From assembly GCA_009103225.1 (NCBI GenBank), contig RHPI01000575.1:103224-167223 (forward strand): DNA of 64,000 bases. Direction: 5' to 3'. The number at the start of each line of letters is the position of its first letter. Position 1 is the first letter of the stretch. This document shows positions 33,501 through 64,000 of the stretch, piece after piece. A program made the position numbers and the translations under genes. The notes below the pieces were generated by a model, which had not been told where the DNA came from, searched no databases, and worked only from the letters and a program-made list of their open reading frames with translations. The DNA comes from Chlorokybus atmophyticus. Taxonomy: Eukaryota; Plantae; Mesostigma and Chlorokybus algae.

Positions 33501-35136
33501 AGCAACTCAAACGGGAGAGGATGCGGGAAGACGGTAAACACTTGGACAGCAATGAGGAGGATTTGGAGCTTGTGGAGCAGGGTTTAAAGCTTGAGGAGGA
33601 TGCTAATGATACCGATATGTATGAGTATGACGACGCCCCATAGATAGCAAGGATTTGTGAAACTTGACCGGTTGTGTAGTATTGTTGTTTGCATAAGCAC
33701 TGAAGTAGCATCTAAAATATGTGCATATGTGTTTTGTAAGTTTTTTATGTCTCTGTGCGCACAATCAAGTATAGGTCTACGCGGTGTAAGAACCAATGAG
33801 TGTAGAGACAGCAGCAGCGTTGGTTATAATGTCCAATATTGTGTCATAATAATGTTGTTGCTAAAATTGCGTACAGTAATCATGATGTACCAAGTCACTA
33901 TGCGGTTCAATTTATTAGCTAACCTGGGCCCGGAACGAGGACGCCAAAGGGAGGTTAACTTTTGCAGTTGGAGAGCTGGCGTGCTAATGAGGCGTGCTAC
34001 GCAGTGTCTGCCGCAGGAGGGGCAAATGCAAGAGCAAGGGCGAAGGCCGTGACAGCGTCATTGCATCGCCATAGTCCTTCGAGGACTCCTTGTCTCTTAG
34101 CACCGAGGCCACGAAGGGGGTGGTGGTGATTATGGTGCCAGCAGTGCTGCTACCAGTGTCAGTCTTTCAAGCAGCGGTGGTTGTGCGTGTACGCAAGACC
34201 ACTCCTGGAGCAAGAGGCAGCGCAGATGGTGCTCCCAACCCTTCGGCAGCGAACCTGACATGACTCTGGCAGAGCCGAAATGGACGCAGTCGCTTGTCTT
34301 CAAGAAGATTGTGGGCAATGGCGACCTCGTGCCACACAGCTGCGGTGACGTCATCTAGGTAGTCCGCGGCAAGGACAAACTTTTGGTGTCATTCCATTGG
34401 TTTTTGGCTCGATGCTTCACGGTCAAGATGATGGAGTTAAAGCAGTGTATCAAGTTCCGCAAAGAGATAGCTCCTGCAGCGCCGATGAAGACCAACCTTC
34501 TGTTGCTGTTGCGATTGCCAATCGCAACTGCCCCTTCAGACGGCCTAAAGGGCAGCCGTATCTTCTTCGCTATTGGAGCTGACAACGCGGTTGAAAGGAA
34601 GCCAATAACTTACAGCAGTGGGTGCGTCACCAATTTGAGTGTACATGAAGTTAGTGCAGAGGTTGTTTTGATTAATGCAGTATTCATGTTAAATCAATCG
34701 TGATTAAACTTCATACGCATTTTATATGAAGGTCACAATAGCACATAATAGTTTTTATTGATGCAGTATCAAATCCATACACTTCACATGGATTCAACGT
34801 AATATCACTTCATGTTGATTCATGTGGAAACGATAGCAATGTGCGCTCATGTCCGTGGCATGCATATAACATATAACCGTTATATAACTTGAAGTCTTTT
34901 CATGCAATGCACACATAGTAAATACTTGATATAGGCAGCATGATCAGCAACAAGTAGCAATGCAAGGTGCATGCATGTTACCATCACGTACACCTTGCTG
35001 CTATCACATACAACATATCGCTACTCGCTGAACTGTACAACCTCTAGGGACATAAGCTAACTAAATATCAGCCATATTATCACACATGCCGCCAACGCCT
35101 TCATTAGCGCCCTCGTGCGCCACCGCCCGCCATTAA
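29777..35136 (+). repeat. Copy 1 of a 5360-bp direct duplication (offset 6006)
   Basis: Matches 35783-41142; includes the L1 5' end, the sulfotransferase gene and downstream DNA. Confidence 0.95.
31840..33465 (+). CDS. PAPS-dependent sulfotransferase (Sulfotransfer_1, HS3ST-like), N-terminal signal anchor, multi-exon, copy 1
   Basis: 5'-PSB loop PNLFLIGGQKCGSTTL, KELRF, TDSTPIY, 3'-PB VSLRDPVERTLSWF, WYAVQLNLWWRLFP, LVEFFQPLNEQL. Confidence 0.88.
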
Positions 35137-35782: not shown

Positions 35783-36691
35783 GCCCAGCACCCCTAGCTG
35801 CTGCACGGCTGCCCGGATGAAGGGGAGAAGCTCCGGCCTCATGCCCAGGAAGGAGATCCAGAAGCGGGAAGGCGAGGCCTCCTCCCACCGATGCACACGA
35901 ACAGTCTTGTGGCTGCACGGAGGAAGAAGGTTGCGCTTGGCAAGGGAAAGGACGTGCTCCGCACCTGCCACGGATGTGAACACGCATTGCACATCCCCGG
36001 TTCCGGCAATTGGATGCACCGAGGACAACAAGCTAGCCGGCTGCCCCTCCGAGCACACCGCTTGCAACCAAGCAAGCCGCACACTTGTAGCTGATGTGAG
36101 TGATGCGGCGAAAGGAAAAGTAAAGACGAGTGCGCGCGAGCGGAGCACGCACAACCAGTCCTCAAACAGTGGGGAAGCTACCGTGATCTCTAAGCATTCA
36201 GCAGGCCCCTCCAGAGAAGGGGTGACTAGCAAAGAGCCAGGGCAACCCGACACAACTGTAGCTAGGCACTCAGCTGTGGGAGGAGGGGCCTCTTGCGAAG
36301 CCCTGGAAAGCGTGGTAGACAAGCCCGGGGCAGGACGGCCAGCAGGGCGCCGTGGGTCTCCTGCGCTCCAGGCGCCTCCGGCCACCTCAAGCGAGGCGGT
36401 GGCCTGGGGCAGCCCCTCCCCTTGAAGGGGGGGAGGGGAAGGCTGAGCTGGCTGAGCCGGTAGAGGGGAGGCAAGCGCAGCAAGCATGGCCTCCGCGCTG
36501 TCTATCTCCTCAGCCATGTTGACCAGGGTTGACCAACCCAAAAATAGGTTTGCTACAAAGGGCGGCGAGGTGGCCAGGTCAGGGGTAGGACCGCAGCCCC
36601 AACCACCCCCCCAACGACGTGAAAGCTCCCCCCCCCTCCCAAGCTACTCCGCCGCCGCCGCCGATCACTAGGCTCCCGTTGTTCGTCCGCC
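35783..36691 (-). mobile_element. L1 5' fragment (5'UTR and ORF1 N-terminus)
   Basis: About 98% identical to 29777-30685 (about 17 substitutions counted by eye). Confidence 0.9.
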
Positions 36692-37845
36692 AGCGGCCGG
36701 ATGTTGGTACTTGCAGCTGCGCCAATCAGAGAGTTGCATCGCTTCTGCCGTGGTAAACGGGGCCGTTAACCGTCAACCACCGCTGGCTTGCGGTGCGCAT
36801 CACCCTTGGTTTTGCACAAAAGTCCGTACTCACGCGCATTTTGCGCAAAAAAATACAGGTTTCTAACGCACGCCGCCCTCATAGAACGGCCGCATAGGGC
36901 CGCTTGCCCCGATTGCCAGCGCTTCGATCAAAATTTCACGTCGGTCAAAAGGCGAGAGAACGATTAGGGCTTAGCCCTAGGGGGGGTTAGGGTTATCGCC
37001 AGGTGACAGAGCCGACACCCGCGTGCCCGAGTCTTTAAAGTCTGCAGACTCTGCAGAGCCTGCGCCTAAGCCTTCAGGGCTACGGATTAGGCCTAGCCAC
37101 ACGCGCGCTGTCTCGTGGTGCTTGCAAGCGGCGTGAATGCTGCGGCGGATGCAGAGGATTTGTCGAGTAGAGTAGTAGCACACAAGCCACACCTCTGCAT
37201 GGGGCGGCTCCGACGTCGCGGCGGCGGCGGCGGCGGCGCTGTGCACGTCTTGGTGGCCGTGTTTGCTTTGACCTAACCAGGATTTCCAAAGAGCTCGCCA
37301 GGTTCCCAACGCGGTGAGGGCCCGTTGGCCGGCACACAGCACCCACTGGCAACTTGCCAGCAACTACTGTCCCAGCATTCGTCAGTTTGGCAAGAGACTC
37401 AGGCGAGCACTGCATGCAATGCTCGCCTGAGTCTCCTCTTGGGCAAAAGGCTGCGTTGGCCTCTCTTGTTAATCAGCAGTTGCGTGTTGTCCCCAACTAG
37501 AACGCCGCGTCTCACGCGGTTCCTGCTGCATGCCGCTGCCTGAGGTGCAGGCTGCCCAACATCACACAACCAGATGCATGTGAACTTCGTCACGCACACT
37601 CTGAGGAGGAGCGTCATTGAGCGCACGGTCGTGGCTGCAGAGTACTCACACATGGACAGGCCTGTGTATCCATGTTGGCATGTGCCGTGCACATGCATTG
37701 CCCCCTCATGTTGGTTGACCGGGTGTCGCGTGCACACCGCAGGACTGCTAGTGACGCAAACCAGCCACTTGCGTGAGAAACGCATCAACGACAAGTTGAT
37801 CGCTTGACAAGAGCGCCAGCTCACCCACCCGCTCCAGATCTAACC

Positions 37846-39471
37846 ATGCTTCGTGCTGCTCGTCCTCATCCCCTCTTGCTCCGCCTCCTCCTTGTTCTGG
37901 TCGTTGTCCACCTCGCCGGTGCCTCTACTGCAAGCGGGGAGCGCGCACCGAGGAGGGCGCTGCTGCTGGCTGGAGGGAGTGGCGGTCATAATGATGAGGT
38001 GTTGAGCAGGACCGCGGGTGGCGTGCCGTGCTACGAAGGCCGCCCGCTGCCCAACCTCTTCCTCATTGGTGGGCAGAAGTGTGGCTCCACCACTCTCTGG
38101 GGCTATTTTGTCAGATGTGTGCTTGAAACGCGCAACGCTGACAGCGCGGCCTGACATTGACACACTTCATGTGCTTCTGCAGTGAAGCCTTTGGCAAGGG
38201 AGCGGTAAGCCCTTTGGCGTGTTTGAGATGCTTCAAGATGTGTACTAACTGAGGCCACGCACAACACACGCACGCACAGCATTGGTGTGTGTGTGTGTGT
38301 GTGTGTGTGTGCTTCAAATCAATCAAGCAGGTTTTCAAGTACGAAAAAGAGCTTCGCTTTTTACAACAACGGCTGTTGCCGCAAAGAACACCGGATTTTT
38401 TGGCAGAGTACTCAAAGATCTACCCCCGGTGCTCTGACAGCCGCCTCGCAGATGGGGTAAGAGCTGATATTGTCAACAAGGATGCTCTAATGCACTTGTC
38501 GTTTCAACATCAGCATGCAAAAGCCCAACCGTGACGTGCACACCCTTGTGTATGCACTCGCTTGTGGCCCGTGCATGCCGCACTACATATACATACATAT
38601 AGACCGCGCACGCAAGCAACTACATAGATTAGCACAGGCATATGCCCGTGCTCACATGCACACACACATGCACTAACATACACGCATATGCAGAGGGTGC
38701 GTTACGTGACGGACAGCACACCGATTTATCTGCTCTTGCTAAACACACCGATGCACATTGGCCAGCACTACTCCCGTTACGGGCTCGACGCAGAACTCAA
38801 GTTTATGGTCAGTCCTGACCTGTGTGACTTGTGTGACCTGTTTATATTTACGGTTTATGGTTTAGGTCTCCCTGCGCGACCCCGTCGAACGCACCCTCTC
38901 ATGGTTTGGGCACACTGGCCGAATTACATATCACATCCCGTGCCACGTTGAATTTGATCCATGGGCCCAACAGGCCCTGGCCGAGGCCCGCACCTGCATG
39001 GCCGCACGCCAACATCTGCCCAAGCCACGGGTGCTTCAGCTCGTGCATCGATTTGTACGACATGCACTGCCTGCATTGAAAGAGATTTTGATCAGCGGTT
39101 GTGTGCAGGTTTATGAGGAGTGTCGGCCTTCTATTCTGTTGGACTCATGGTATGCCGTTCAGTTGAACTTGTGGTGGAGGCTCTTCCCACCTCAGAGGCA
39201 ATTTCTCATCGTGGACTTCCACAAGTTAGTGTACCAGCGCGAGGCCACTATCGTGCGCATGCTCGACTTCCTCGGGATCGAGTACGAGCTCCCGCTCCCG
39301 GACCTAGAAGTGCACAACAACCCCATGTCCAGTCACGATGTCTGCGCCATGCCAACCATGTCGAACGAGACGCGTGCAATGTTGGTGGAGTTCTTTCAAC
39401 CGCTCAATGAGCAGTTGAAGTCGTTGTTCGAGCGGTATGGTGTATCTAAATGGTTGCCAGAGTTTGTGTAA
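37846..39471 (+). CDS. Sulfotransferase, copy 2 (appears identical to copy 1)
   Basis: Identical ORF translations at offset 6006. Confidence 0.8.
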
Positions 39472-42290
39472 CCGAGAGTATGTGGGTGAGGCGGGACGGC
39501 AAGATGAGCAACTCAAACGGGAGAGGATGCGGGAAGACGGTAAACACTTGGACAGCAATGAGGAGGATTTGGAGCTTGTGGAGCAGGGTTTAAAGCTTGA
39601 GGAGGATGCTAATGATACCGATATGTATGAGTATGACGACGCCCCATAGATAGCAAGGATTTGTGAAACTTGACCGGTTGTGTAGTATTGTTGTTTGCAT
39701 AAGCACTGAAGTAGCATCTAAAATATGTGCATATGTGTTTTGTAAGTTTTTTATGTCTCTGTGCGCACAATCAAGTATAGGTCTACGCGGTGTAAGAACC
39801 AATGAGTGTAGAGACAGCAGCAGCGTTGGTTATAATGTCCAATATTGTGTCATAATAATGTTGTTGCTAAAATTGCGTACAGTAATCATGATGTACCAAG
39901 TCACTATGCGGTTCAATTTATTAGCTAACCTGGGCCCGGAACGAGGACGCCAAAGGGAGGTTAACTTTTGCAGTTGGAGAGCTGGCGTGCTAATGAGGCG
40001 TGCTACGCAGTGTCTGCCGCAGGAGGGGCAAATGCAAGAGCAAGGGCGAAGGCCGTGACAGCGTCATTGCATCGCCATAGTCCTTCGAGGACTCCTTGTC
40101 TCTTAGCACCGAGGCCACGAAGGGGGTGGTGGTGATTATGGTGCCAGCAGTGCTGCTACCAGTGTCAGTCTTTCAAGCAGCGGTGGTTGTGCGTGTACGC
40201 AAGACCACTCCTGGAGCAAGAGGCAGCGCAGATGGTGCTCCCAACCCTTCGGCAGCGAACCTGACATGACTCTGGCAGAGCCGAAATGGACGCAGTCGCT
40301 TGTCTTCAAGAAGATTGTGGGCAATGGCGACCTCGTGCCACACAGCTGCGGTGACGTCATCTAGGTAGTCCGCGGCAAGGACAAACTTTTGGTGTCATTC
40401 CATTGGTTTTTGGCTCGATGCTTCACGGTCAAGATGATGGAGTTAAAGCAGTGTATCAAGTTCCGCAAAGAGATAGCTCCTGCAGCGCCGATGAAGACCA
40501 ACCTTCTGTTGCTGTTGCGATTGCCAATCGCAACTGCCCCTTCAGACGGCCTAAAGGGCAGCCGTATCTTCTTCGCTATTGGAGCTGACAACGCGGTTGA
40601 AAGGAAGCCAATAACTTACAGCAGTGGGTGCGTCACCAATTTGAGTGTACATGAAGTTAGTGCAGAGGTTGTTTTGATTAATGCAGTATTCATGTTAAAT
40701 CAATCGTGATTAAACTTCATACGCATTTTATATGAAGGTCACAATAGCACATAATAGTTTTTATTGATGCAGTATCAAATCCATACACTTCACATGGATT
40801 CAACGTAATATCACTTCATGTTGATTCATGTGGAAACGATAGCAATGTGCGCTCATGTCCGTGGCATGCATATAACATATAACCGTTATATAACTTGAAG
40901 TCTTTTCATGCAATGCACACATAGTAAATACTTGATATAGGCAGCATGATCAGCAACAAGTAGCAATGCAAGGTGCATGCATGTTACCATCACGTACACC
41001 TTGCTGCTATCACATACAACATATCGCTACTCGCTGAACTGTACAACCTCTAGGGACATAAGCTAACTAAATATCAGCCATATTATCACACATGCCGCCA
41101 ACGCCTTCATTAGCGCCCTCGTGCGCCACCGCCCGCCATTAANACGTTCGTCGCGGTGGATGTACCCTATCACGCGTCATAAATCGTGGAACGCTTGTAA
41201 ACCCAAGTAGCATACCAATGAGCACTATATGTTGTTTGAAGATGGAGAATGTTGTTGGTGAATTTAATGCCTATATATTGTCTTACGCTTGTGCAATTGA
41301 TCAAAGTGGGTCAATATGCCTTTTGTTTTGCTGTTATACAAATCTTGCCATCAGCAAACATAGTAGAAGTTACTTGTTTATGGTCAACCATAACTTGTGG
41401 TTGGTTTTGATAGGAGGGAGAAATGGTAATATTTATTTGATATCAATTGTCGTCGAATATCCCCCNNNNNNNNNNNNNNNNNNNNNNNNNNNNNNNNNNN
41501 NNNNNNNNNNNNNNNNNNNNNNNNNNNNNNNNNNNNNNNNNNNNNNNNNNNNNNNNNNNNNNNNNNNNNNNNNNNNNNNNNNNNNNNNNNNNNNNNNNNN
41601 NNNNNNNNNNNNNNNNNNNNNNNNNNNNNNNNNNNNNNNNNNNCCCCCCTTAGGACTAACACCCTCCATTAAGTTTGGTGGTGGTGGTTGGTGGACACCT
41701 CCCTTGTACACTCATTTCGTCTTTTTTTACAACACCCCCCATGATTTAGCGGTGTCATGCCATGAGCACTCGTTGCCACGAGCACTTGACACAATTAGCG
41801 TTGTACTGAGCACATCATTGAGAGATACAAGCATTCATGCGCACACGCACCAGTGGGGGCTATTTTCAACAAGTAGAGGATGCTCTGTGCATACATATAC
41901 ACTCAACCGTATGTACACCTATGCAAGATGAGGGAAACTATGCCATAGCCCGTCCGTGGCGCTCTTGTGACTGAAGAGCGGACCATTTTGCCAACACGCA
42001 GGGTAGCAACCTCGCAGACATTTTCTCTGACCACACCACGGGTCGAGCTTTCATGCGACACCGATAGAAATGGTTCCCCAACAGTCTAACTTTGACCACA
42101 ACCTGATTGAAAAACTACCTCTAAATCAATTGGAAATTTGGTGGCAACCGAGGTATTGATTTCTCTCTTTTTCTGTTTTAGTCACAACTCAGTTTGGTAT
42201 CTAGCGGCCATCAAGGTAAAGTAGACGGCGTGCATTCAGTTTAGTATCCGTCTTATCTTCAACTTAATAATGGTTACATCCTTCATAATT

Positions 42291-48599: not shown

Positions 48600-51500
48600 C
48601 ATCGCGCAACACCCGACACCAGCACTTCTCCAACAGGCCGTACTGGTTGCAGAAGCCGCAGTTGCGGAGGGGATGTAGAGTCCCCTCATCAGCTATTAAC
48701 ACCAGCAGATCTGCTCATGGCACAAGCATTGGCAGCTTCCGTGCCCATTGGTGCGGGCACCACCTCCAGCACTACAGCAGCCCTTAGCGGCGCCTCAGCC
48801 GGTGCTTTGGTGCCCTCTTCAGCACCCTCCGCACCAGCAGCAGGCAATGCAGCGCAGCGCGTTGCGCGATCCTTTCAGGGTCCCCTCCCCGGACACTCCT
48901 AGAGTGCCTGGCCAACAGGTAGCCGGGTTCCGCATCACACACGCGTTCCTTCCGCACCTGACACCACTTTTGCACCACCACCCAACGTGAACGATCGCGA
49001 GGATGTCAAAACACCGTCCTGGCCAGGGAGGGACCCGAGGTGGACCCACGCAAGGTTCAGTTCCACTTCGGTGCCATTGTGGTGAGCCGGTTGGCACGAA
49101 GGTTGCTCTGGTACCTATGGCAATGGTATCAAACCGCTCCGTTCCTATATCCCTACCACGCCATCACTCAGCACCCTTCTTCGCTGCCTCTACTGTACGA
49201 TTACGCCGTCGTGAGGCGCGCAGTCAACCAGCCCCTCTACAACGACACCAACCTCTTAGGGGATCCACGTCAGCGTGACTGGGTACGACGGCGACACGCA
49301 CTACAACAGGTTGGTCGATGGGTACAACAGGAGCACGCTGCTGATTAGGCACAGGCATCCCCACGGGGACTGATACTGGAGGAGGGGACCAACGCGATTG
49401 TGGAGAACTTCTCTCCGGGACCAACCGCGGAGGGATACATCACCCTCACTGGCTACCACCATCGCCATGGCCAGGGGCTTTATGGAGAACAGGAGATTCG
49501 GGCATACCTACTGCTGCAACTCACATGGCTGGAAGGCATCCCCACCAACTTGTTGAACTTGTTGGGGTACCGCACCATGACCCGTGCCCGAACCCGTTTG
49601 CTTCGGTGGCTGGTGACCACCCATCCCGCCATGCCGCAGACTGCTTTCAACAGCCGAGCAAGATGGCTGAGCGCGTTTTTGCGCTCACTCATGCAGGCAT
49701 TCCAGGATGCAGACGGGGAACAACTTCGCACCGTCGCAGCCGCCCGAGATGCCATTGCCACCCTTCCTAGTCTGGAAACGGCACGATAGCGTGACAGGAT
49801 TGGCAACTGCTATATGCACTACAGGCATGAGCGTCCGGCCGAGACTGCGCCGTCGGTGCATGCGCATGCCATAACCAATCTCGACATGGGCATCACCCAT
49901 GGTCGTTGGGATTCTTTTATGGCAGGCATCCTGAGCGTACCCATCCTCACCAATGGCATTCACGACGAGGTAGTACGCGCCCTTTTTCTGATGCCCATGC
50001 CACGATGGGACTGGGGCAATAACGATATTTTGGGGCACCCCACAGCCTCATAGGAAACCACTCTGGTGCGCGAGGCAGCCCATGCCGTGCGCGCCGCACG
50101 AACAGAGGCAACTGCGTCTACGCCTCCCGCAGGCAGCTCTCCTCCTCTTAGTCCAAGACCGGCATCCGCCCCAAGACCAGCAGAGGGGGCAGGAGAAGGC
50201 GCACCACCGGGGGAAGGCAACGAGGCTGGGCCACCAGAGCAACGCAGCGGCATGATGGCACAACGTCTTGGCCACCCCTCGCCGAGCACATCAGCGGGCA
50301 GCGCTCCACAACGCACTACGAACCGCACCAGCGTCCAACCCAACGCCATCATGGTGGCAAACCAGGGCAAGCATGTCCTGATCAGCGGCAAGGCACCAAA
50401 ACGGGTGTTACTGAACACAGGGGCTCAGCCCATCTTCATCGGCAAGTACATGGCGCGCGCGCTCAACATTACTGCTGCCGACCTGGACGCATGCCCGTAC
50501 ACGCTCAATCCTGTGATGGACACCGCCCAGAAGGCGCTTGGCCTGACCAAAAAGACGATCCCCATCACGTTGGTTGGTCACAACTCCACACAGGCAACCA
50601 CATATGACGTCAAGAATGTCGTGTTCGACTCTCGCAACTACAATCTGATCTTGGGGCAGGAGTTTAATTATGTGATTGGGGTGGTCGTCGACAGCTGAAC
50701 AAAAAGGGTTTGGTTCCACCCACAATGGCGCACTGGCCACAGCCCACGCTGTGAGTTGCCAGCAACGTTCCTGGTGGGAGGACGCCATCTCAGCAGCTCC
50801 ACTACGGTGGCAGTTGCAACTACTTCGCCCACCATGCGTCGTATGCTCCCAGCAGCTGTCGCTGGATTCGAGCGCAAACCATATGACGACACGCAACAGC
50901 CCGAGGACATGGAGGTGGCACTATGGGACTCTGCACGACGACGCCAGCAGGCCACCATCGCCGCCAACGCTTCTACGCACCATCGGGCTCACCAAGCTAC
51001 CTGCATACGAAGAACCCAAGGGTGTGCAGGAACAATGTCGCGTGGCCCCGGGCGTGGTGGAATTCCACACATTTCGCCGCAGGCAGGGTACGTTGCTGAA
51101 ACTTTTTAGCGGCATTAGCAGTGGACTGGCCGCCGTCCTCAACGCCGGCGTCAAGGTGAACCAGTATTACTATTGTGATCCTGATCCGTTGGCACAACAG
51201 GCTTTACGACACCATTTACACTAGTTGCATCAGCGTTACCCCGATCAGCTGCCGTTGTCAGCACTCAATGCAAATTTAAGCACGCTCCCGCAAAACATCC
51301 GGCTGATCATCATCTCCGATGCGCACCTGCTGGCACTCGGCAACATTGACCTGCTCATCGCAGGATGGGAATGTCAAGGCCACTCTCGCGCAGGGTCAGG
51401 AAGGGGTCTACAGGGTCCACGCTCCAACCTCTTCTGGGAACTGCTTCGTGTTTTCCACGTCGTCCAGAATCATCAGCTGGCTCGCCCACTGGCTTACATT

Positions 51501-52901
51501 CTAGAGAACGTCCACTCCGAAGACGACAACCGGGCCAAATGTTCGTGATGACTTCCACATGATCTGCTCCATGCTGGGTCATCCTCTGCGCATAAACGCC
51601 GCCCGCCACGGTTCGCGAGCACGCCGCATACGCGCCAAGTGGACCAACGTGGCCACTATAGAGGAACTGTTCGTATCAGAGCACCACCTCAGTTAAGGTC
51701 CGTATAACCACACAGTGGACGCAATTCTTGACCATGGCAGGACAACCCAGCCCGTCAAAAAGCTGGATCACGCACGATTCCACCAATGCAACCAGCCTGC
51801 CTAGCCAGGTCGCGCACTACCCATGCTCGTCTCCTACCCCGGCTCTTACGCCTATCGAAACAACGATGAAGGCATGGTGTGGGACATTTCCACGGGTAGG
51901 CTCGAAGAACCAAACGCACGAGAGCGCGAACGCGCCATGGGTTTCTTCCCAGGTACTGTCACTACTTCCGCACTCACCGACAGTCAACATCGCCAGCTGC
52001 TGGGTCGTGCCATGGACCAGAACATGGTATGGCTGTTAACAATGTGTTTCGCCACTCAAGACCGTTATGTGTCCTTGGAGGACGCTGCACACATGACCGG
52101 GGCGTGGGTTGATCGCCCACGAGACACAGCACCAGCCTACACAGCTGTGGAGTCAGCACGGATGGAGGAGCAGGCCGCAATCTCCGTGGAGGACATTCCC
52201 GTCAAAGCCAACGCCACGTCATGGGAACACGCATTAGGGCCACTTGCAACAGGTGACACTTGAGAACAGCTTAAAGCCTTGCTAGACAAGTGGAGGGCAC
52301 AGTTTAGCTTCAACGTCAAGGAGTTAGGGAAGTGCAGTGTGTACGAGATGGACATCGACCTCATTGTCGAGGAGCCCGTGTTCCGACGGCAGTTCAAGCT
52401 GTCCAAGCTTGAGGAGGAGCTTGTGGAACAACGTTGCCAAGCTCTGCTCGACGCCAGTCTCATAGAGGAGTCCACGTCGCCACCGCCACGGTTATGCCTC
52501 TCAAAAAAGACTTCGACGGCAATTGCACAGACAGGCGCATGTGTGAAGGTTACCACCCCCTCAACATCAAAACCAAGCAGGATCCCTACCCCATGCCGAC
52601 GGCTGAAGGCATTTTCGATGACGTCGGCTCCTGCACCATTTTTGGCATCCTCGACATGAGGCAGGGGTACAAGCAGATAGAGATCAAGGAGGCTGACAAG
52701 CACAAGACCTCGTTCTAGGGCAATTGCTAGCTGTACCAGTGGAAGGTGATGCCTTTCGGGTTGAAGAATGCACATGCCAAGTTTCAGCGGGTGATGGACA
52801 AAGCTCTCAAGGGGTGTGCCTTCGCACACTGGTACATCGATGATATTCTGATTTTTAGCCACACACCAGAGGAGCACCTGCTACACATGGAGGGAGTGTT
52901 T
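48600..52901 (+). mobile_element. Ty3/Gypsy-DNMT retrotransposon A (truncated at both ends, decayed): unknown domain - protease - DNMT - RT
   Basis: Protease LLNTGAQPIFIG (about 50408), DNMT about 51090-52035 (KLFSGISSG, DLLIAGWECQG, YILENV, RIRAKWTN, ERERAMGF, LLGRAMDQN), RT PFGLKNA/WYIDD; collinear with element B; no gag knuckles, RH, IN or LTR found. Left boundary approximate. Confidence 0.88.
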
Positions 52902-53900
52902 GCACCTACAAGCATTTATGCTCGCCAATTGATGCGTCTGGCATTGGCCACGGATGCATGGGACGATACTGTGGGTGATATGAACGCTTTTAGACACTTC
53001 TATAATTGGACTACAGCTGGGTTGCAGACTTACAATGGCAATGCTCGGTGGAAGCCCTGTATACAGCTTGAGCTGCATGTAGACGCTTTGGGTACAATTG
53101 GTTGGGGGGCAACAGGACCTTGGCCTCGCATGGCGGGCAACTTCAAGCCTAAGCATATGTCACTGCCTTCGGCCGTCAAGGAGGCACTCGCTTAGGCGCA
53201 AGCATTTATTGAAGTAGAGCGCGCGCATGATCTTCAGCACTGTACAGTGCGCATTATGGGCGATTGTCAACCATCAATTCAAAATGCTGAACAAGATGTC
53301 TGCTTCTGAGCCTCATATGCTGCAAGCTTTACGTCAGCTGTGGTCTTTGTGCTGGGAGCGTGATATTGCGCTAACGTGTGTGTGGCGGTCGCGTGAGGAG
53401 CTGCGCGATGCGGATGCATTATCTAAGTTTATTGACTGAGGAGATTGGGCCTTGACCGCTGACGCAACCGCGCACGTACAACAGCATGTTGGACAATCAA
53501 CATTTGACTGTTTTACAGCTGATTGGAACAGCAAAGCGCCTGCTTAATTCAGTTATATACACATGCCTGGAAGTTTGGGAAATGCTCTAACTATAAACTG
53601 GCGCGATGTTCTTCAACGCTTGGGGGGCGGCGTTGTTTGATGTCACCCGCCATTGGCTCTCCTGCATGAAGCCATAGCATTATTGCAGTATTACCAGCTG
53701 CCAGCTATGGTGTTGGTGCCTAAATGGCATTTTGCTGTATGGTGGCTAGTGTTTCGCAATTGGCAATTCACTTATTATGAGAGATTATGCCCACGGCCGG
53801 AACGGTTTAAACGCGGTGACCGAGTATTCGGAAACAGCATCAACTCTGGACGCTACCCATACATTTGTGCTTTTGTGCATTGGGTAAGCGTACCTTTCGT
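52902..53900 (+). mobile_element. DIRS-group retrotransposon fragment: RT tether, RNase H and Dam-like (N6-adenine) MT domain, decayed
   Basis: LHVDALGTIGWGA, KEALA, IMGDC, VWRSREELRDADALSK (DIRS-type RNase H); then D*GDWAL, FDCFTADWNSK, INW, HPPLALL, VLVPKW..WW (DIRS MT signature). Confidence 0.75.
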
Positions 53901-53957
53901 GTAGGTAACGGTGCATGATGACAGCACTTCTCCATGTGCCTTGAGCTTGTATGTCTT

Positions 53958-54355
53958 CTAGAGTAACACCACACTGGCTAGCTGGAAGGCGCTCTCAGCG
54001 GCACCACGCCTGAACGAGTGCAACCCCAGGTGCGGCCTATATATGCCACACGCCTTGCAACAGTGCACAATCGCATGGTATGCACAGTTACCAGACGTGC
54101 TATGTTCTTCCCCCTTCAAACTATTCTTGGCAATTGGCCAAAGTAGAGGACCAGCGGTGATGGCAAAGGAGCTCCCGCGACAGTAGGTTGGATAGGCATA
54201 TAGTACTTCACAGAACTCCACAGGCAGACCATTGCTGCGCACTTGTATGCTGGGTGCGCCTCCAGTGCTGTAATTCTTGAGATGTGTTGCAGTGGTCGTC
54301 AGCCCTAAACCTGCCGCTTGTATCTCGTGCATCTATCAACGCGCACCTTCGCCAC
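53958..54355 (-). mobile_element. Tyrosine recombinase C-terminal fragment (antisense to RH/MT, kangaroo-like layout)
   Basis: GE..R**MHEI (RxxE region) cut by the LTR at 54355/54356; GPLLWP; GLHSFRRGAA (HxxR motif). Confidence 0.75.
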
Positions 54356-55244
54356 TGTCGTGCCTGCCATGGTCGAGGGCAACCTTGTCTCGGACAGGCT
54401 GCGGAGGAGTGCTAGTGCTGCACGCATGCTAGTGCCGTGCACTGCATTGGAGTCATGCAAACAAAAGACAACCCCCCAATCGTGGGCATAGGCTTGAAGA
54501 TGGGCCTACGCGATGTTTAGTGCAGTGGACGAGCCGATGCCGCTCGCCACCTTTGTGTACAGACTGTGTCGTAGTGCACACAGTCAACAAGCCACTACGA
54601 TAGGTAGTGCTGTGGACACAGTTCTTTGCATGAGTGGATACAATGATACACTGTTAAGTGAGGTGAATGAGTGTGCAACACGCGGATACAACACCCTGAC
54701 TACTGAAACAACACACCACCGACAAGCTCACAGCAATGACAGGCACAGCGCACAAGAGCATGCACCGTGTCTCACGCAGTAAGGGAATTCTTGGCAACCG
54801 GGGCAGCGTGCTTCCAGTTCAAGTCGCTTCACAAGCTCTTTAGAAACAGAGTCTTTACTTCTTAGTACTCCTAGTACTCACAGTACTCACTTACAGTGTC
54901 ACCAGCCAGTCTGGTGACGTGACTTCCTACTTATACATGTCAAATCATGACCGTGTAGTGCCACGCGGGCATTAGGCCAACGGTCACATCGAGGCCTCAT
55001 GCTATTTCGGAAATCTCCTAAGACTCGATATAGCACATGTGTTCTTAACAGACTTACAACTGCTCAGCTACGCGCGGTCCCTACAGACAGGTCTATAAAG
55101 TAGCCCTAGCTACATGCTACATGAGTGGTACGGTAGCTAGCAGTAGGCTGGGGCTCGCGCGGTCTTCATGCTGGTAGCCCGGGCGTGGGGCTGGGTGTAG
55201 GCATGCTTGAGAAGAACTGGCATGCGAGGGTAGATGGCATGACA
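54356..55244 (-). repeat. LTR copy 1 (889 bp) of Ty3-DNMT element B
   Basis: TGTCGTGCC...GGCATGACA termini (8/9 inverted match); direct repeat of 55247-56075 at offset 891; contains AGTACT x3 at 9-nt spacing (54864-54887). Confidence 0.8.
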
Positions 55245-55246
55245 GC

Positions 55247-56075
55247 TGTCGTGCCTGCCATGGTCGAGGGCAACCTTGTCTCGGACAGGCTGCGGAGGAG
55301 TGCTAGTGCTGCACGCATGCTAGTGCCGTGCACTGCATTGGAGTCATGCAAACAAAAGACAACCCCCCAATCGTGGGCATAGGCTTGAAGATGGGCCTAC
55401 GCGATGTTTAGTGCAGTGGACGAGCCGATGCCGCTCGCCACCTTTGTGTACAGACTGTGTCGTAGTGCACACAGTCAACAAGCCACTACGATAGGTAGTG
55501 CTGTGGACACAGTTCTTTGCATGAGTGGATACAATGATACACTGTTAAGTGAGGTGAATGAGTGTGCAACACGTGGATACAACACCCTGACTACTGAAAC
55601 AACACACCACCGACAAGCTCACAGCAATGACAGGCACAGCGCACAAGAGCATGCACCGTGTCTCACGCAGTAAGGGAATTCTTGGCAACCGGGGCAGCGT
55701 GCTTCCAGTTCAAGTCGCTTCACAAGCTCTTTAGAAACAGAGTCTTTACTTCTTAGTACTCCTAGTACTCACAGTACTCACTTACAGTGTCACCAGCCAG
55801 TCTGGTGACGTGACTTCCTACTTATACATGTCAAATCATGACCGTGCAGTGCCACGCGGGCATTAGGCCAACGGTCACATCGAGGCCTCATGCTATTTCG
55901 GAAATCTCCTAAGACTCGATATAGCACATGTGTTCTTAACAGACTTACAACTGATCAGCTACGCGCGGTCCCTACAGACAGGTCTATAAAGTAGCCCTAG
56001 CTACATGCTACATGAGTGGTACAGTAGCTAGCAGTAGGCTGGGGCTCGCGCGGTCTTCATGCTGGTAGCCCGGGC
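55247..56075 (-). repeat. LTR copy 2 (3' LTR of B); last ~60 bp hidden in the gap
   Basis: At least 4 substitutions versus copy 1 over 829 bp (54683/55574, 54956/55847, 55063/55954, 55132/56023); separated from copy 1 by GC. Confidence 0.8.
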
Positions 56076-58984
56076 NNNNNNNNNNNNNNNNNNNNNNNNN
56101 NNNNNNNNNNNNNNNNNNNNNNNNNNNNNNNNNNNNNNNNNNNNNNNNNNNNNNNNNNNNNNNNNNNNNNNNNNNNNNNNNNNNNNNNNNNNNNNNNNNN
56201 NNNNNNNNNNNNNNNNNNNNNNNNNNNNNNNNNNNNNNNNNNNNNNNNNNNNNNNNNNNNNNNNNNNNNNNNNNNNNNNNNNNNNNNNNAACAGTAGATA
56301 GTATGGGCTGTACTCTCGCAGGGCTGCCTGCTTTGACAGCCGGTAGCCCATTGCTACCCATGGGAGGTGATCATCCCAGGTATTCTTCTTGTAGGCGAGG
56401 ACGTACTTGCGCAGTGCCTTTTTGATGGTCTGCACGGTACGCTCGGCGAGGCCGGCCTGTGGGTGGTCGCGTGAGGTGCGACGGTGGTCGATGAAGCATC
56501 TGTCGATAAGCTTGTCGAAGGCTCCTCTGAACTCCGTGCCCTGGTCGTTGATGACTTCAGCACAGCTGCCGAAGCGTCCGAGTACATGGGAGAGGAAAGC
56601 CTGGGCTACTCCCTCACTGCTCTTGTCGGGCAGGGGCACCAGCTCCACCCACTTGGAGAAGTGCTCGATCATGACGAGGATGTAGCGGTTGCCTCGCGCT
56701 GAGGGCGCTAGGTCTCCGAGGATGTCCAGTCCCCAGCGGTAGAACAACCCGGAAATGGGAAGGGGATGCAAGGTGGCATTGCGCGTATTGAGGCTGGCGC
56801 GAACCATGTCACACTGCTGACAGTTGCTGACGAACTCCCTCACCTGTCTGTGCACCCCATACCACCAGTACTGGGTCATGACCAGGCTGACCGTGCGCTT
56901 GACACCGAAGTGCCCGAGCTCGGTGTGAAGGGAGGAGATGATGCCTTCACGTGCAGCTGGTGTGGGGACCTCCTGATCTGCATCTTGTATCCGTCGATAC
57001 AGCCTGTCGTTGGCCCAGCGGTAACGCTGAGTGCGTTGTCGGACGCGGTCCTTCTCGCGTACGCTCATGCCTGCTGGAAGTTGTCCAGTCTGAAGCAGTG
57101 CGAGCGATGGCTCGTCCAACCAGATGTCTTGTCGTGTGTCGGTGGGTGCCAGCTCCTCATCATCCACCTCAGGGTCGGCAGCGATTGCTTCTTCTGATAA
57201 AGGATCGGTGGTGGTGATGGCGGGCTCGAGAGCGGGCATGTCCCCGTCTGCTGCTGCCTCAGCGATCTGAGTCCTGCGTCCTGAGTGTAGCGCAGCGACA
57301 GCGAACATGGTGGCCACACCTGCAGGTGCAGCTGTAGGACCCAACGCATGTCGGGCGCCTGTGGCGTCGTTGGTGCTGAGGTGGGGGTTACGGCTGAGGC
57401 CATCCGCATCCTGGTTGGCAAGGCCTGCGCGGTGTTCCACCTCGAAGTCGTACTCCTGGAGCAGCAGCGCCCATCGTGCTAACTTTCCTGTCAAGTGCTG
57501 GTTGTTCATTAGCCACTTGAGGGGTTGATGGTCAGTGACCAGTTGGAACTGCCGTCCAAACAGAAAGGGTCGGAAGAAGGAGATGGCCCACACTGCGGCG
57601 AGACACTCCCCTTCGTAACTGCTGTAGTTGGCCTCAGCACTGTTGTTGCTGCGGCTGGCGTACGACACTACGCGCTCCTTCTTGTTGTTGTCGTGCTGTA
57701 CGAGCACGGCCCCCATGCCGAGCTTGCTCCAGTCTGTGTGCAGGATGAACGACCTGGTGTAGTCAGGGCGTTGCAGAATGGGAGCTGTGGTGAGGCGGAG
57801 CTTTTGTTCCTGAAAGGCCTCCTGTTGTGCCTCCTTCCACAAGAACTCGGTGTCCGTCTTCAGTAGTTCGTTGAGAGGCCTTGCGATCTTGGCAAAGTCT
57901 TTGACAAACCGTCGGTAATAGTTGGCAAGGCCGAGGAAGGCCCGCAGCCGCGTGAGGTCTGTGGGGGCAGGGATAGCCACCAGTGCCTCCACTTTGGCCT
58001 GCTGTACGTACACACCATGGGGCACAATCATGTGTCCTAGGTAGGGTACCTTGTGGGTGAAGAAGGTGCACTTGTCAGGGTGCACCGTCATCCCGACTTC
58101 CTTCAGCCTCTGTAGCACCTCTTCGATGTGCTGGAGATGCTCCTCATTGCTGTGACTGAAGATGAGGACGTCGTCGATGTAGCAGCGTGCGAAGTCCAAC
58201 CCCTTGAGGGCTTTGTCCATGACGCGCTGGAACTTGGCCGGAGCGTTCTTGAGCCCGAAGGGCATGACCTTCCACTGGTACAGCTGCCGGTTTCCCCAAA
58301 AGGAAGTCTTGTGCTTGTCCTCCTCCTTGATGGCGATCTGGTTGTACCCTTGGCGCATATCCAAGATGCTAAAGACCGTGCATTCTCCTACATCGTCAAA
58401 GATGCCTTCTGCGGTAGGCATTGGATACCGGTCCTGCTTGGTCTTGTTGTTGAGGGGGCGATAGTCGCCACACATGCGCCGGTCTGTCCAGTTGCCTGCT
58501 GAATCTTTCTTCAGGGGCATGACGGTCGCGGCCGCAAAGTCCGTTGTGGACTCCTCGATCAGGCCTGCATCTAACAGCGCCTTGCACCTCTGTTCCACCA
58601 AATCTTCTTCTAGCTTGGAGAGGCGGTACTGTCTTCTGAACACCGATTCGGCGTCCACTAGTTCAATGTCCATCTGGTATGCTGAGCAGATGCCCAGCTC
58701 CTTCACACTGAAGCTGAATTGGCTCCTCCACTTGTTGAGGAGAGCCTCGAGTTGCTCTCGAGTCTGGCCTGTGGCCAGCGGTCCAATGGCGTGGGACCAC
58801 GAGGTAGCGTTGGCGACCACTGGAATGTCTTCCACAGTGACTGCTGCCTGCTCCTCCATGTGGGCGGTCTCGAGGGCGGTGTGTGCTGCTTTGGTCTCTG
58901 AAAAGCGAGCAATCCACCCCCCAGCCAGGTGTTCGAGCTCCTGGAAGGACACATGGCGGTCCTGGAGAGCAAAGCACATTTCCA

Positions 58985-59924
58985 AGTACCACACCATGCT
59001 GTTCTGATCCATGGCGCGTCCTAACAACTGACATTGTTGACTGGTTGTCAGCGTGGAGCCTGAAATGCTGCCTGGAAAGAATCCCATAGCACGCTCGCGC
59101 TCACGAGCGTTGGGTTCTTCAAGCTGTTCAGTGTTGGAGTCTAACACCATGCCGTCGCCTGCATTGCGGAACGCGTAGGAGCCTGGATAGGATACAAGTG
59201 TGGGTAGCGCGCGGCGCGGCTGATCAGGCTGGTTGCACTGGTAGAAGTGGTGGTGGTCAAGGCGTGTGACTGGTTGCGCTGTGCGTCCAGGGTCCAGGAT
59301 GTCATCGACGACGAGATTTCGTGGCCGATTGCTGTATAGGTACTCTGCCAGAAACAGGTCTTCCACAATGGCCAGGTTGGTCCACTTGGCGCGGACGCGG
59401 TGTGCACGAGATCCATGACGCGCGGCATTGATTTTGAGAGGATGCCCCAGCAAGGAGCATACTTGCCGATAGGCCTTGGCGACGTGATGCCGCTTGTCAT
59501 CCTCGGAGTGCACATTCTCGATGATGTACCCCAAGGGCCTAGCGATCTGACTGGTCTGTAGGAGTTTGATGACTCTTATTAGCTCCCAGAACAGCTATGA
59601 GCGAGGATCAGAGAGCCCTTGGCCTCTGCCTGCCCTGGAGTGCCCTTGACACTCCCATCCTGCTATCAGCAGGTCAATGTTGCCGACTGCCTGTAGGTGA
59701 TCCTTGGTAATCCAGCGGATGTCCTGCGGTAGAGCCTTCTGGCTCCCTTGCAGTGCCGACAGTGGTAGCTGCTGCGGGTAACGCTGGTGCAGCTGTCGTA
59801 AATGATGGCTCAGAGCCTCCTGTGCATGAGGGTCAGGGTCACAGTAGAGATACTTGGTGACTGTTGTTCCTGTGTTGAGGACAGCCGCAAGCCCACTGCC
59901 TATGCCTCCGAACAGCTCCAGCAC
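58985..59924 (-). CDS. DNMT3-like C5-cytosine methyltransferase domain within the pol polyprotein of B
   Basis: Motif I VLELFGGIGSG, IV DLLIAGWECQGHS, VI YIIENV, VIII AHRVRAKWTN, IX/X ERERAMGFFPG...QLLGRAMDQ; one TAG at 59595. Confidence 0.9.
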
Positions 59925-62900
59925 GGTGATGCCTTGTTGTCGGCGGAACATGTGGAACTCCACAACTCCCGTAGCTATGTGGTACTGCTCCTGCACTGTA
60001 GCCTGGTCTTTGTAGACAGGGAAGTGTGCAGTGAGCTGAGGCCTGGTTATCAGCATGTGTGCTGCTACTTGTGCGCTCCAGCGACGCTCGGATGGCTCCT
60101 GAAAGGCCACTTCTTTGTTGACAGTCTCCTGAGACTCATCGTACGGTGTAGGAGAGTCCTTTTCAGCGTTTAGGCTCGGGCTCGAGCTTGTTGCAGTTGT
60201 CCTTGGCTGCGTTTGGGCACGAGGCACACGTGAGCGTTTTGTAGAACTGTAGGTGGCTGCTGCGGCCAATCTTCGTTGCGAGCGGGCCTTGGCCACCAGT
60301 TTGAGAGGTAGGAATCCCTGCTCCTCTCCATCATCCTCATCCCAATGCGGTCGAAACCATGCCTGCTCAGTCCAGCAGTCCAGCCCCATGCCGACAGGGA
60401 AGTTGCAGTCCTGTCCCAACAGTAGGTCAAAGGACCCGGCATCGGTGGCCACACACCTTTGTACAATCTCGGTGCTGTGGGAAGGGTTTAGTCCGGTGAG
60501 GCGGATGCTCACAGCTTGCTTGGTAAGGCCGAGTACCTTGTCGCGGTTGCCGGTTGCGGTGTCCAGCTGGTAGGGACAGGGAAGCAGCTCAGCGCTGGTG
60601 ATGCCGAGATCTCGTGCGAGATAGCGCCCAATGATGACAGGCTGTGCTCCAGTGTCCAGCATCATGCGTTTGGGTGCCCGCCCATTGACGGTCACGTGCT
60701 TGCCTTGGTTGGCGATCATGGCTGCATTGGCTTTGATGCGCAGCCTCTTGAAGCGACGGAACCTCTTGCGTGGAGAGACTGTTGCTTTACTCTCATCTGT
60801 GGGGCCTGACCGTAGGGCAGCCAGGGCTCCTTTGCATGCTGGATCTTGTGGGCCTCCTTGTCCTCGGCTTTGTCCAAACCGTCCTTGTCGCGGTTGCTGG
60901 TACACGCGTGGTGGCCTAGGCACTGGAGGTGCTGCTGCAACCTGTTCAAGTGGAGGTGCAGGAGGGTTGACCCTCTGTGCAACTGTTGTCATGCCAGGAG
61001 GAGTGGCCAGTGGCTGTGGCGGGAACCCTAAAGGACCTGGTGTTTGCGGGACTGCCTCTCGTGCAGCCTGCTCATCTGCATAGGTCCATCGCACAGCATG
61101 GGCTGCCTCTCTGACTAGTGTACCTTCCCATGTCGCCGTCGCATTGTTGTCCAAGTCTATATAGCGATGGTTCTGAGGCATGGGCTGCAGGTACACTGCG
61201 CGTAGGAGCCGCGCCCTCATGTCGTGAGTGATGGTGGGCACCCTGAGGATCCCTGCCATGTAAGCATCCCATCTGCCGTTGACCACTCCCACTTCCAGCA
61301 CTGTTATTGCTCATGTGCGTACAGTGAGGCGGGTCTCTGGCTGTTGGACATGCTGCTCGTAAGCAGCGGCGACGCGCCTGCGCTGACGTCCTGCCTCCAC
61401 TCCTGGCAAACTCAGTATCGCCTCCAGAGCTCCCTCCAGAGTGTCGGTGGCGGCGGAAGCCACTTCATCATAGGCTTGCCGTATGGAGCGAAGGAATGCG
61501 TCCACCTACGCTATTCTGGCGCCGAAAGCGAACAACGGGACTGCGGGATGGTTGGTGACCAGCCACGTCACTAACCGTGCGCGTGCCGCGTTGCCATTGT
61601 CTCGCATCCCAAGCATCTGCCGGAGTCGATGCCTTCTTGACGATGCAGCATGGTTGCTTGTCGCAACAGAGCAGTGCGTAGTTGTTGCTCTCCAACCAGT
61701 CCTGCTCCATCTCTTTGTGTACACCCTTGTGGTGTAAGGTAGCCCTTCCCTGGCTCCCTTTGTTCCTCAGGTAGATCCTCCACCAGCGCAGGCAGCAACG
61801 AGGCGATCACCCCCCTGGTTTGTTGAGCCAACGCCCTCGCTTGGTCAGAGTTGATCTCGACGAAGAGCGGAGTGGTGCTGGAGGATGGACCAGCAGTTGG
61901 TGACTGAGGTATTGGTGCACGTGTAGCTTCAAGAGCTTGCTCACGTGCAGCAATGGCGGCAGCTTGATCCTGTCGCCAATGATATGCTTGTTCCAGTGCG
62001 TGGTAGCGCTGATGAAGACGAGCGGTTGTAGGAGGTCCGAGTGCTTCATCAGTGCCCAAAGGCAGGTCGGCTGCGTCGGCGATGCGCTGCTGGACGGCGT
62101 CTCGGCGGTCCCGATACGTGTCCAACGGGCTGGGTTCAAAGGTGGTGGTTGGCATGCGTGCAGGCTGGCGCGGGGCGGTCTGCATGTTGTTGTGCAACGC
62201 CCAGAACAGCTGCAGAGCCAACTCCAACACTACGAATGGGCTGTAGCTGATCAAAAACACCCTGTCACGCATCGGAGGTGCAGTGCCAGCAAGGATCTCA
62301 TCTTCTAACTGGTGTTGAGTGAGTGCTGGAAGGGTGTGAACCTCTGGTAGCGGGAAGACGCGATCATTGCGGGCGACACGCGTGGTGCGCTCCCCCCCCC
62401 GACCGAAGGCGATGGTAGTGGGGTCTGCTCAGCGCAGGATGGTTTCCCATGCTCGTTCAGCTTGCTGACCAGTTGGGACAGCCTGAGTGACGTCGAGAGC
62501 GGGCAGAATGGCTGCGCGCGTCGCTGCAGAGACAGCGGGCTCGACGATGGCCATTGTGGCACTTGCGACGGTATCGGTCGGTGGTGCGAGAGTTGTCTCA
62601 ACGCCTACGGACAGAGGCACTGCTGCAGTGGGAAGTGCACCGCCCACTGGTGCAGATTCGGTAGTGATGGCGGCTGCTGCCAGTGTGCTCACCAGCGTCG
62701 GCGTCACGGTGCCCACCGGTGTACCAGGTTGTGGTGCAACTGGAGTGGGTACTGCTGACGTTGGTGGAGTCGACGTTGTAGCCGGTGTGGCTGTTGCTGC
62801 GGAGGCAGCACCACTGGTGGCTTCGGAGGAGGTGCCTGCTGATGTTGTTGCAGCTTCCCCTCGTGCTCGTCGTGATGGTTGCACGCGGGACGGAGTGTTC

Positions 62901-63169
62901 CTGTCTCTCTCGCGTTTTGCAGCCATCAGCGCCCATCGGGCCGTGTAGCAGGCGCGGTAGTCCTGCTCCTTGTCTTCCTCCAAGCGTGCCATACGTGCCA
63001 TGAGGGCTGCTATATGGTCATCAGCTGGTGGGTTGGCTGAAGCCTTGGCGGCAACAGCAACAGCGCGCGGACGTGTCTCTGGTCCCTTACGCTGAGGAGG
63101 TCTGTTCTTCCCCCTGTAGCCTTGCTCTTCCTTGCGAACACTGGCGTTGTTGTTGTTGTTGTTGTTGCC

Positions 63170-63320
63170 ACCAGCGTTGTTGCTGTTGTGGGCTCCAGTG
63201 TTGTTGCTATTGTAGCCACTGAAGTGGTTGCCAGTGTGGCCCCCAGTGTTGTTGCTGCTGTAGCCACTGAAGTTGTTGCCAGTGTGGCCCCCGGTGTTGT
63301 TGCTGTTGTAGCCACCGAGG
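63170..63320 (-). repeat. 39-nt (13-aa) Asn/Gly/Ser repeat in gag
   Basis: GYNSNNTGGHTGNNFSGYSSNNTGGHTGNHFSGYNSNNTGAHNSNN. Confidence 0.85.
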
Positions 63321-64000
63321 TAGTTGTGGTTGTAGCTGTTTGCGGGCCTCAACTCTGGGAACTTGAGCCAGCAGACTGACTCCAAATGACCAGTCTTGTG
63401 ACAGTGGTCGCAAACCAAAGTTGAGTATTCTTCGGTGCACTCCTTTTGGTAGTGCCCATGCCGTCCACAGCGATGACACAGCACAAGGGCAGCAAGTGCA
63501 TCATGAGCTGACCGTTTCCCTTTGTCGCGTGCTGGTGGAGCTTCCCGGCCACGGTCGCGGCGAAGAGGCTCAGTTGTCGTGCTGACTACAGGCCGTACGG
63601 CGCTGCGGTTGGTGTCCAGCACTGCCTTCTCATACACCAAGCGCTTGTGGATGGCTTGTGCAGTCTCGAAGGCTTCTTTGAGGGTGTAGCCAAGGGGCCT
63701 GCTGTAGTTCAGAGTCAGGCGTGTCGACTCGCTCAGAGCAGCATCCAACTCATTGACGTATATCACTGCAGCAGCCTCCTCACTGACAATCTTGTAGTCA
63801 GTGTCCTTCAGCAGACCTTCCAGTCTGGAGTACAAGCGGAGGGGATCCTCATTGGGCTTGCGTCGGAAGCGTCTCAGCTCCTCAACCTTGCTGGTGGTCT
63901 GAGGAGGGAAGGTACGGCGCAGGGCAGCGTACAGGTCCTTGAGTGGAGAATCAGAGATGGCAGCACCTACGGTGATGGCTGGTGCGCGCAGTGCTACTGA

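Follow-up and report, generated by a model that had tools for sequence, protein, structure and literature searches.

A broken Ty3/gypsy retrotransposon with a DNMT3-like domain in Chlorokybus atmophyticus and its relatives in two domain layouts

KnitGypsy-Dnmt3 of Klebsormidium nitens is a Ty3/gypsy retrotransposon with a DNMT3-like domain, described by de Mendoza et al. in 2018 (PMC5890265). The available text of that paper places the gypsy capture of DNMT3 within the K. nitens lineage and leaves it as a single-species capture without shown activity. The same text reports CG methylation in yeast for the Symbiodinium DIRS-Dnmt3 domains, for which its authors proposed methylation of complementary DNA (cDNA). 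Here we analyze 64,000 nucleotides of Chlorokybus atmophyticus (assembly GCA_009103225.1, contig RHPI01000575.1, positions 103,224 to 167,223 of the forward strand), referred to throughout as the window. The window holds a broken Ty3/gypsy retrotransposon with a DNMT3-like domain between the protease (PR) and the reverse transcriptase (RT) of its polyprotein, and by the sequence-based tests run this element belongs to KnitGypsy-Dnmt3.

Inspection of the minus strand places PR, the DNMT domain, RT, RNase H (RH) and integrase (IN) in one reading frame with one interruption, a TAG within the DNMT domain (59595-59597). A gag frame lies upstream of PR on the same strand, separated from it by three more stops (62429-62431, 61506-61508 and 61311-61313) and one frameshift, giving the four stops and one frameshift counted in an earlier note that a model had made from the sequence alone. 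The frame change near 61626 follows from comparison with a second copy of the family in the window, and contigs of the public runs X1 and X2 differ there by one base. A gag followed by the order PR-RT-RH-IN with a DDE integrase places the element in Ty3/gypsy. The element spans from the window end (64000) to a gap of N (56076-56289); its 5' end lies beyond the window, the integrase enters the gap, and neither end of the element nor any long terminal repeat (LTR) is visible. The window copy cannot produce full DNMT or RT.

The domain carries the C5 cytosine methyltransferase motifs I (FGGIG), IV (GWECQ), VI (ENV), VIII (HRVRAKWTN), IX (ERERAMGF) and X (LLGRAMD) in the unrearranged order I-X, as the earlier note had described for the PR-RT interval. 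Its position between a DTG protease and RT, in the same frame, is also as stated there, and its length is about 325 rather than 310 amino acids. For profile and sequence searches the domain was translated with X at the TAG. Pfam DNA_methylase matches it at 44.4 bits against a cut-off of 22 (E 1.9e-11), and the best sequence matches in PDB are DNMT3C and DNMT3A (E 1e-7), with weaker matches to HaeIII (1e-5), HhaI (1e-4), DNMT2 (0.029) and DRM2 (0.2). An AlphaFold model (36 sequences) has a pLDDT of 94.5; in a Foldseek search this model matches DNMT3A (E 2.7e-19, TM 0.69), and all 33 fold matches listed are DNMT3A, DNMT3B or DNMT3C (TM 0.61-0.71, 21-23% identity). The domain is thus DNMT3-like, being closest to DNMT3 by sequence and predicted fold, and the proposal of a Ty3/gypsy element with such a domain withstood both the profile and the fold search.

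A protein search found 63 longer homologues, of which the 58 with more than 230 aligned residues were used to count conservation. The catalytic Cys, the motif VI Glu and the motif I Gly are each kept in 57 of them, and both motif VIII Arg and the motif I Phe in 56. The ratio of nonsynonymous to synonymous substitution rates (dN/dS) for DNMT is 0.12 at dS 0.26 in the closest pair, L054 and L056. Four more pairs give 0.07-0.19 at high dS, one further pair is saturated, and the two window copies give 0.09 over 315 codons with dS near saturation. These ratios indicate that DNMT is under purifying selection across the family.

The homologues fall into two layouts by domain order. Layout A, with gag/PR before DNMT or RT/RH after it, describes 28 of the 63, and layout B, which reads RT-RH-DNMT-IN and mostly adds a PHD finger, describes 32; three could not be placed. 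When tree rows were labelled by layout, loci L068 and L104 were assigned to B by hand. RT records without a DNMT were kept unlabelled because many may be the second open reading frame (ORF) of a layout A element. Layout A hosts named are Closterium, K. nitens and Marchantia polymorpha (the last from the RT search), and the layout B hosts named are all chlorophytes: Hariotina, Tetradesmus, Chromochloris (Chrzof1) and Haematococcus. Two proteins from Tetradesmus deserticola derive from transcripts. Examples of RT-RH-DNMT-IN-PHD are P0021, P0035, P0042, P0044 and many loci among L059-L114; a PHD finger also ends the layout A relatives L054, L057 and L097. K. nitens KFL_009030040 (P0186) reads PR-DNMT-RT-RH-IN in one frame, as in the window copy, and in P0023, P0128 and P0132, too, DNMT shares its frame with PR and RT. 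The in-frame arrangement thus recurs in relatives, against the second condition that the earlier note set for its refutation. K. nitens KFL_013780020 reads gag-PR-DNMT, and the M. polymorpha gene models Mp_2g26090 and MARPO_0091s0058 (P0104, P0125) are PR-DNMT-RT-RH pieces of the family. RT records from Coleochaete and Calypogeia fall among the layout A rows, with no DNMT within those records.

Among cluster representatives at 50% identity (1.84 billion searched), 248 match at E≤1e-30 and 689 at E≤1e-10, numbers that do not bear out the earlier description of the architecture as rare. Other retroelement domains accompany DNMT in 79 of the 129 new representatives listed, and 50 have DNMT alone; all 150 representatives listed are close family, with no host DNMT3 or DRM among them. 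No clear LTR or split-repeat structure was found in the relatives (33 loci longer than 6 kb, most incomplete). A search of IMG/VR with two peptide patterns returned no full-length viral relative. It did return 53 loci (L001-L053), which are C5 methyltransferases with partial matches to the family domain (52 within residues 3-160 and one at 95-235; E 1e-12 or weaker; 27-56% in the best segment), and a viral origin of the DNMT domain was rejected because these loci match part of the domain only.

RT-RH and DNMT trees were compared. The RT-RH tree was built with FastTree from the 163 rows left by a length filter, 36 of which, chosen by hand, were analyzed more carefully in IQ-TREE without a mixture model; the DNMT tree holds 118 rows after a length filter. 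Both layouts lie in one RT clade with support 100/100 in IQ-TREE, and the same clade appears in the FastTree tree. This clade joins the window element with K. nitens P0186 and P0112, in line with the Klebsormidium precedent cited in the earlier note. Layout B forms a single group (100/99) inside the clade and adjoins a K. nitens layout A element (91/97, not starred), and this nested position suggests, weakly, that layout A is probably the older. The DNMT tree likewise splits layout A from layout B and places the window element in a set of 37 rows, 36 of them layout A, with P0048 and P0186 (Shimodaira-Hasegawa-like support 96). Neither the RT nor the DNMT tree gives a supported sister relation of the window element to either K. 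nitens element. For the 64 rows present in both the DNMT and the RT tree, path lengths correlate with r 0.74 (0 of 999 permutations as high), a value that kin and near-copies inflate. The simplest reading is one DNMT capture, inherited with RT, and one later domain move.

The sister clade (99/96) holds P0176 and P0187, which read PR-Dam-RT-RH-PHD-IN and thus have a Dam adenine methylase in the DNMT slot (Pfam Dam E 6.5e-11 for P0176; precomputed Pfam for P0187). That two unrelated DNA methylases occupy the same slot argues for DNA as the substrate. Precomputed Pfam also assigns a dUTPase domain to the outgroup Ty3 polyproteins P0192 and P0195.

Inspection of the interval between DNMT and RT reveals a second feature of the relatives. 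The sequence UAG-CAR-YYA is the readthrough signal of tobacco mosaic virus (TMV), with about 10% readthrough according to the available text of PMC2754532. Four of the six layout A loci that have both DNMT and the RT start carry a single in-frame TAG, 83-91 codons 5' of RT, with CAR-YYA after it; a fifth, decayed, reads TAG TAG CCA (L060:1789) and the sixth is open. As these four loci belong to two subgroups, they amount to about two independent cases. The background frequency of the pattern is 27 of 13,461 stop triplets in family loci. It follows none of 24 upstream stops in layout B, where 9 more rows are open to the contig end, and none of the four stops of the window copy, whose DNMT-RT linker is open. 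Under this signal the main product is predicted to be Gag-PR-DNMT, RT-RH-IN-PHD would arise by readthrough, and DNMT would be made far above RT. Several relatives' proteins end, in the protein records, 100-170 amino acids past DNMT, which fits the readthrough model. Locus L054 has no Met between this TAG and RT.

A broader history can be put forward tentatively, as a possibility somewhat short of even. One ancient Ty3/gypsy clade would span both halves of the green lineage, perhaps being as old as their split, and would have a dedicated DNA-methylase slot: filled by Dam in the sister clade, and by a DNMT3 captured once in this one, which later moved behind RNase H in chlorophytes. In one subgroup the DNMT3 would have come to precede a TMV-type leaky stop, giving a Gag-level amount of methyltransferase per particle to pre-mark cDNA.

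With moderate confidence, we favor the explanation that in working family members DNMT likely methylates the element's own new cDNA, a judgment that covers the whole account including cleavage in the particle, a CG mark and a benefit at entry. In the lineage of the window element, Gag-PR-DNMT-RT-RH-IN would be made as one polyprotein, and PR would cleave it inside the virus-like particle. DNMT would then sit beside double-stranded cDNA and add 5-methylcytosine, probably at CG as DNMT3 enzymes do. A copy marked in this way would enter a methylated genome and either escape treatment of unmethylated DNA as foreign or set its own chromatin state. In the subgroup with the leaky TAG after DNMT, the methyltransferase would be about as abundant as Gag, and RT-RH-IN-PHD would be made by readthrough.

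Several observations weigh against self-methylation of cDNA. Motif IV has E-C in place of P-C, with Glu before the catalytic Cys in the window copy and in 38 of 58 relatives and Pro in 18. Apart from the stop, five positions of the window DNMT deviate from residues that are otherwise near-invariant, as is expected of decay. At least one clade member, P0181, lacks DNMT where its neighbours carry one, so that DNMT may be dispensable, and no cleavage site was identified in the polyprotein. There is no element-specific loss of CpG: the observed/expected ratio of CG at codon junctions is 0.62 and 0.57 in the element versus 0.69 and 0.64 in a long interspersed nuclear element (LINE) of the window, and the CG ratio of 20 relative ORFs ranges from 0.22 to 0.97 with no matched control. 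Given the lack of a difference from the LINE and of a matched control, CpG depletion is uninformative as a trace of self-methylation. Finally, the KnitGypsy-Dnmt3 domain gave no methylation in yeast, a result that its authors call inconclusive, as DNMT3B failed too (PMC5890265, available text).

The position of the domain bears on whether the enzyme instead acts on chromosomal DNA, traveling with an integrase-PHD complex to methylate the target site, or silencing older copies and thereby limiting harm to the host. Such a role suits layout B, in which DNMT stands directly before integrase and the PHD finger (32 of 63 homologues have DNMT after RT/RH or just before IN), as well as the C-terminal PHD finger of the three layout A relatives. 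Effects on insertion sites and slowed transposition are also raised in the available text of PMC5890265. In layout A, however, DNMT lies upstream of RT, and in four of six loci upstream of the leaky-stop signal, which would tie it to Gag and not to integrase; the same text describes the K. nitens methylome as ordinary and plant-like. We consider chromosomal action unlikely. It has also been proposed that element-borne enzymes act on RNA: the available text of PMC5890265 suggests RNA methylation by LINE-borne DNMTs, and a DNMT packaged together with RNA could modify element RNA or primer tRNA. DNMT2 is nevertheless far below DNMT3 by sequence (E 0.029 versus 1e-7) and absent among the fold matches listed, making an RNA target highly improbable.

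Inactive paralogues such as DNMT3L have lost catalytic residues, and this comparison bears on a further explanation, in which the domain is retained for binding and not catalysis, coating CG sites of the cDNA or decoying host methylation or silencing factors. The Glu for Pro substitution before the catalytic Cys and the predicted Gag-level amount in the readthrough subgroup, which suits coating, would fit such a role, as would the negative yeast assay of the K. nitens domain (PMC5890265, available text). Retention of Cys, Glu, both Arg and the S-adenosylmethionine-binding motif in 56-57 of 58 relatives argues the other way, and we regard a binding-only role as quite doubtful. Gaps and a 5.4-kb near-identical duplication in the scaffold might raise the suspicion that a piece of a host gene was captured a single time, or that the assembly is chimeric here. 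This explanation has practically no probability left: the second window copy at 69% identity, the 63 longer homologues, X1/X2 depth in 30 of 30 bins and low dN/dS all stand against it, and relatives with the same layout rule it out.

The positions of the features are collected in Table 1.

Table 1. Positions of the features of the window element, of its second copy and of the leaky-stop signal in relatives.
Feature	Position	Strand	Remarks
gag ORF	62432-64000, open at window end	-	capsid-like stretch, two CCHC zinc knuckles, Asn/Gly- and Ala/Thr/Pro-rich linker
gag CCHC zinc knuckles	63431-63478, 63371-63412	-	zf-CCHC E 0.0012, below cut-off
Extra coding stretch, nucleocapsid to PR	61050-62428	-	two stops and frame change near 61626
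Aspartic protease	60408-60695, DTG 60648-60656	-	Pfam Asp_protease_2 E 1e-8
DNMT3-like C5 cytosine methyltransferase	58965-59936	-	Pfam DNA_methylase, motifs, fold; interrupted by TAG 59595-59597
DNMT key positions	motif I 59898-59912; catalytic Cys 59649-59651; motif VI Glu 59517-59519; motif VIII Arg 59397-59399, 59391-59393	-	
DNMT-RT linker	58605-58964	-	open; no in-frame TAG-CAR-YYA
Reverse transcriptase	58026-58604 (RT domain 58026-58487), YIDD 58170-58181	-	Pfam RVT_1 E 5.3e-34
RNase H	57450-57839	-	Pfam RT_RNaseH E 1e-36
Integrase	56290-56960; H2C2 zinc finger 56796-56960, core 56463-56738	-	Integrase_H2C2 E 2.8e-14, rve E 2.8e-7; cut by N gap
Two 830-bp direct repeats	54355-55184, 55246-56075		99.5% identical; 3' of integrase across gap; candidate 3' terminal repeat
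Second, more decayed family member	49100-52895 (start approximate)	+	extra stretch, PR, DNMT about 51078-52060, RT; cut inside RT
TAG-CAR-YYA between DNMT and RT	L054:5083, L055:4509, L056:2081, L057:4661		in relatives

The gag of the window element matches the gag of relatives at 22-29%. The extra stretch between nucleocapsid and PR is common to both window copies (61050-62428 on the minus strand, about 49100-50050 on the plus strand), and its 3' part is kept in the second copy at 43% identity over 140 amino acids (E 1e-38). It has no Pfam match and none in the proteins or loci of relatives that were compared. An impression by eye that it is a second capsid was rejected, as it matches neither Pfam nor the gag N-terminus. 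The 830-bp repeat pair (54355-56075) is compatible with the B-A-B portion of DIRS-like split repeats, whose order is A-coding-B-A-B, or with a plain tandem duplicate. In the second copy DNA_methylase matches at E 4.3e-10, and this copy shares 69% nucleotide identity with the window element over 1887 bp. Directly 3' of its cut RT, 52900-53950 (plus strand) holds decayed frames that by eye resemble a DIRS RNase H and an adenine methylase, with no Pfam match.

Contigs from X1 and X2 give depth throughout 54300-64000, in each of its 30 bins; relative to the window, about 1-3% of sites are different in the longest pieces. At 59597, 61313 and 61626, the three break sites within the rows displayed, these contigs differ from the window so that the breaks are absent. 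The contigs may represent further copies or a different strain, and the window copy may derive from one of them. Elsewhere in the window, 29777-35136 and 35783-41142 form a 5,360-bp direct duplication (99.7% identical) with a sulfotransferase-like frame in each by eye, which may be a recent duplication or an assembly artefact. A LINE-type element at about 23480-30640 (minus strand) has a zinc-knuckle ORF1 and endonuclease-like and RT-like frames, by eye. An RT fragment with FMDD at 8990-9445 (minus strand) resembles Penelope-like elements. Of the host genes, a chloroplast SppA protease gene lies at 11954-15162 (plus strand), with one exon 98% identical to jgi/Chlat1/6096 and the best of 17 other matches at 65%, and an aldo-keto reductase-like exon was seen by eye at 4578-5105 (minus strand). 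Chlat1 is the JGI code of Chlorokybus atmophyticus, a streptophyte alga that branched off early.

If the domain goes back to one old capture that selection has maintained in Chlorokybus, liverworts and chlorophytes alike, it would have a real job in the transposon cycle. The family would then supply numerous enzymes with naturally open frames, in hosts that can be handled in the laboratory, among them Marchantia, Closterium and Chromochloris. The Dam sister clade and the leaky stop bear on which mark is used in which host and on the amount of enzyme per particle. In gene sets of algae and bryophytes, domains of this kind may also lead to overcounting of DNMT3. The wider clade is the more valuable result, the window copy being only a broken example of it. 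The PHD-bearing relatives may be linked to Chlamyvir. The available text of PMC3350952 makes no mention of a PHD finger, and together with that of PMC11244446 and bioRxiv 10.1101/363937 it adds nothing further on the element. The literature searched, in its available text, contains no report of the element in Chlorokybus, in agreement with the new host anticipated in the earlier note, nor in Closterium, Marchantia or other liverworts, or chlorophytes, and it describes neither layout B nor a Dam-bearing sister nor the CAR-YYA signal in this element; such sequences may be listed in PMC5890265 and PMC12344493, in their figures, per-species tables and trees.

Comparison with known systems places the window element closest to KnitGypsy-Dnmt3 as given in the available text of PMC5890265. 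In both, the DNMT3-like domain is intronless and unrearranged and is encoded within the Pol frame; both fall in the same RT clade and show conserved catalytic residues and purifying selection, and the order PR-DNMT-RT-RH-IN is that of K. nitens KFL_009030040. In contrast to K. nitens, the host is Chlorokybus, the window element has about 600 extra codons between nucleocapsid and PR, and identity is 37% to KFL_013780020 in DNMT and 44% to KFL_009030040 in RT. The trees point to an older and wider clade than a capture confined to K. nitens. SymbioDIRS-Dnmt3 of Symbiodinium, in the same source, also has a DNMT3-like domain in the RT frame and two coexisting domain orders; by description it is set apart as a DIRS element with a tyrosine recombinase, no DDE integrase and a dinoflagellate host, and CG activity in yeast belongs to that system. 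The catalytic domains of mammalian DNMT3A, DNMT3B and DNMT3C are the best sequence and fold matches and share the motif order I-X, whereas the window DNMT lacks PWWP and ADD, has GWECQ as motif IV, is about 40 amino acids longer and is part of a polyprotein. The TMV readthrough signal (PMC2754532, available text) recurs as the same nine-base pattern between DNMT and RT in L054, L055, L056 and L057; it lies in relatives and not in the window copy, and readthrough there is predicted from sequence. The kind of element has been known since 2018, and what is added here is the Chlorokybus host, a two-layout clade with matching DNMT and RT trees, the Dam sister and the leaky-stop signal.

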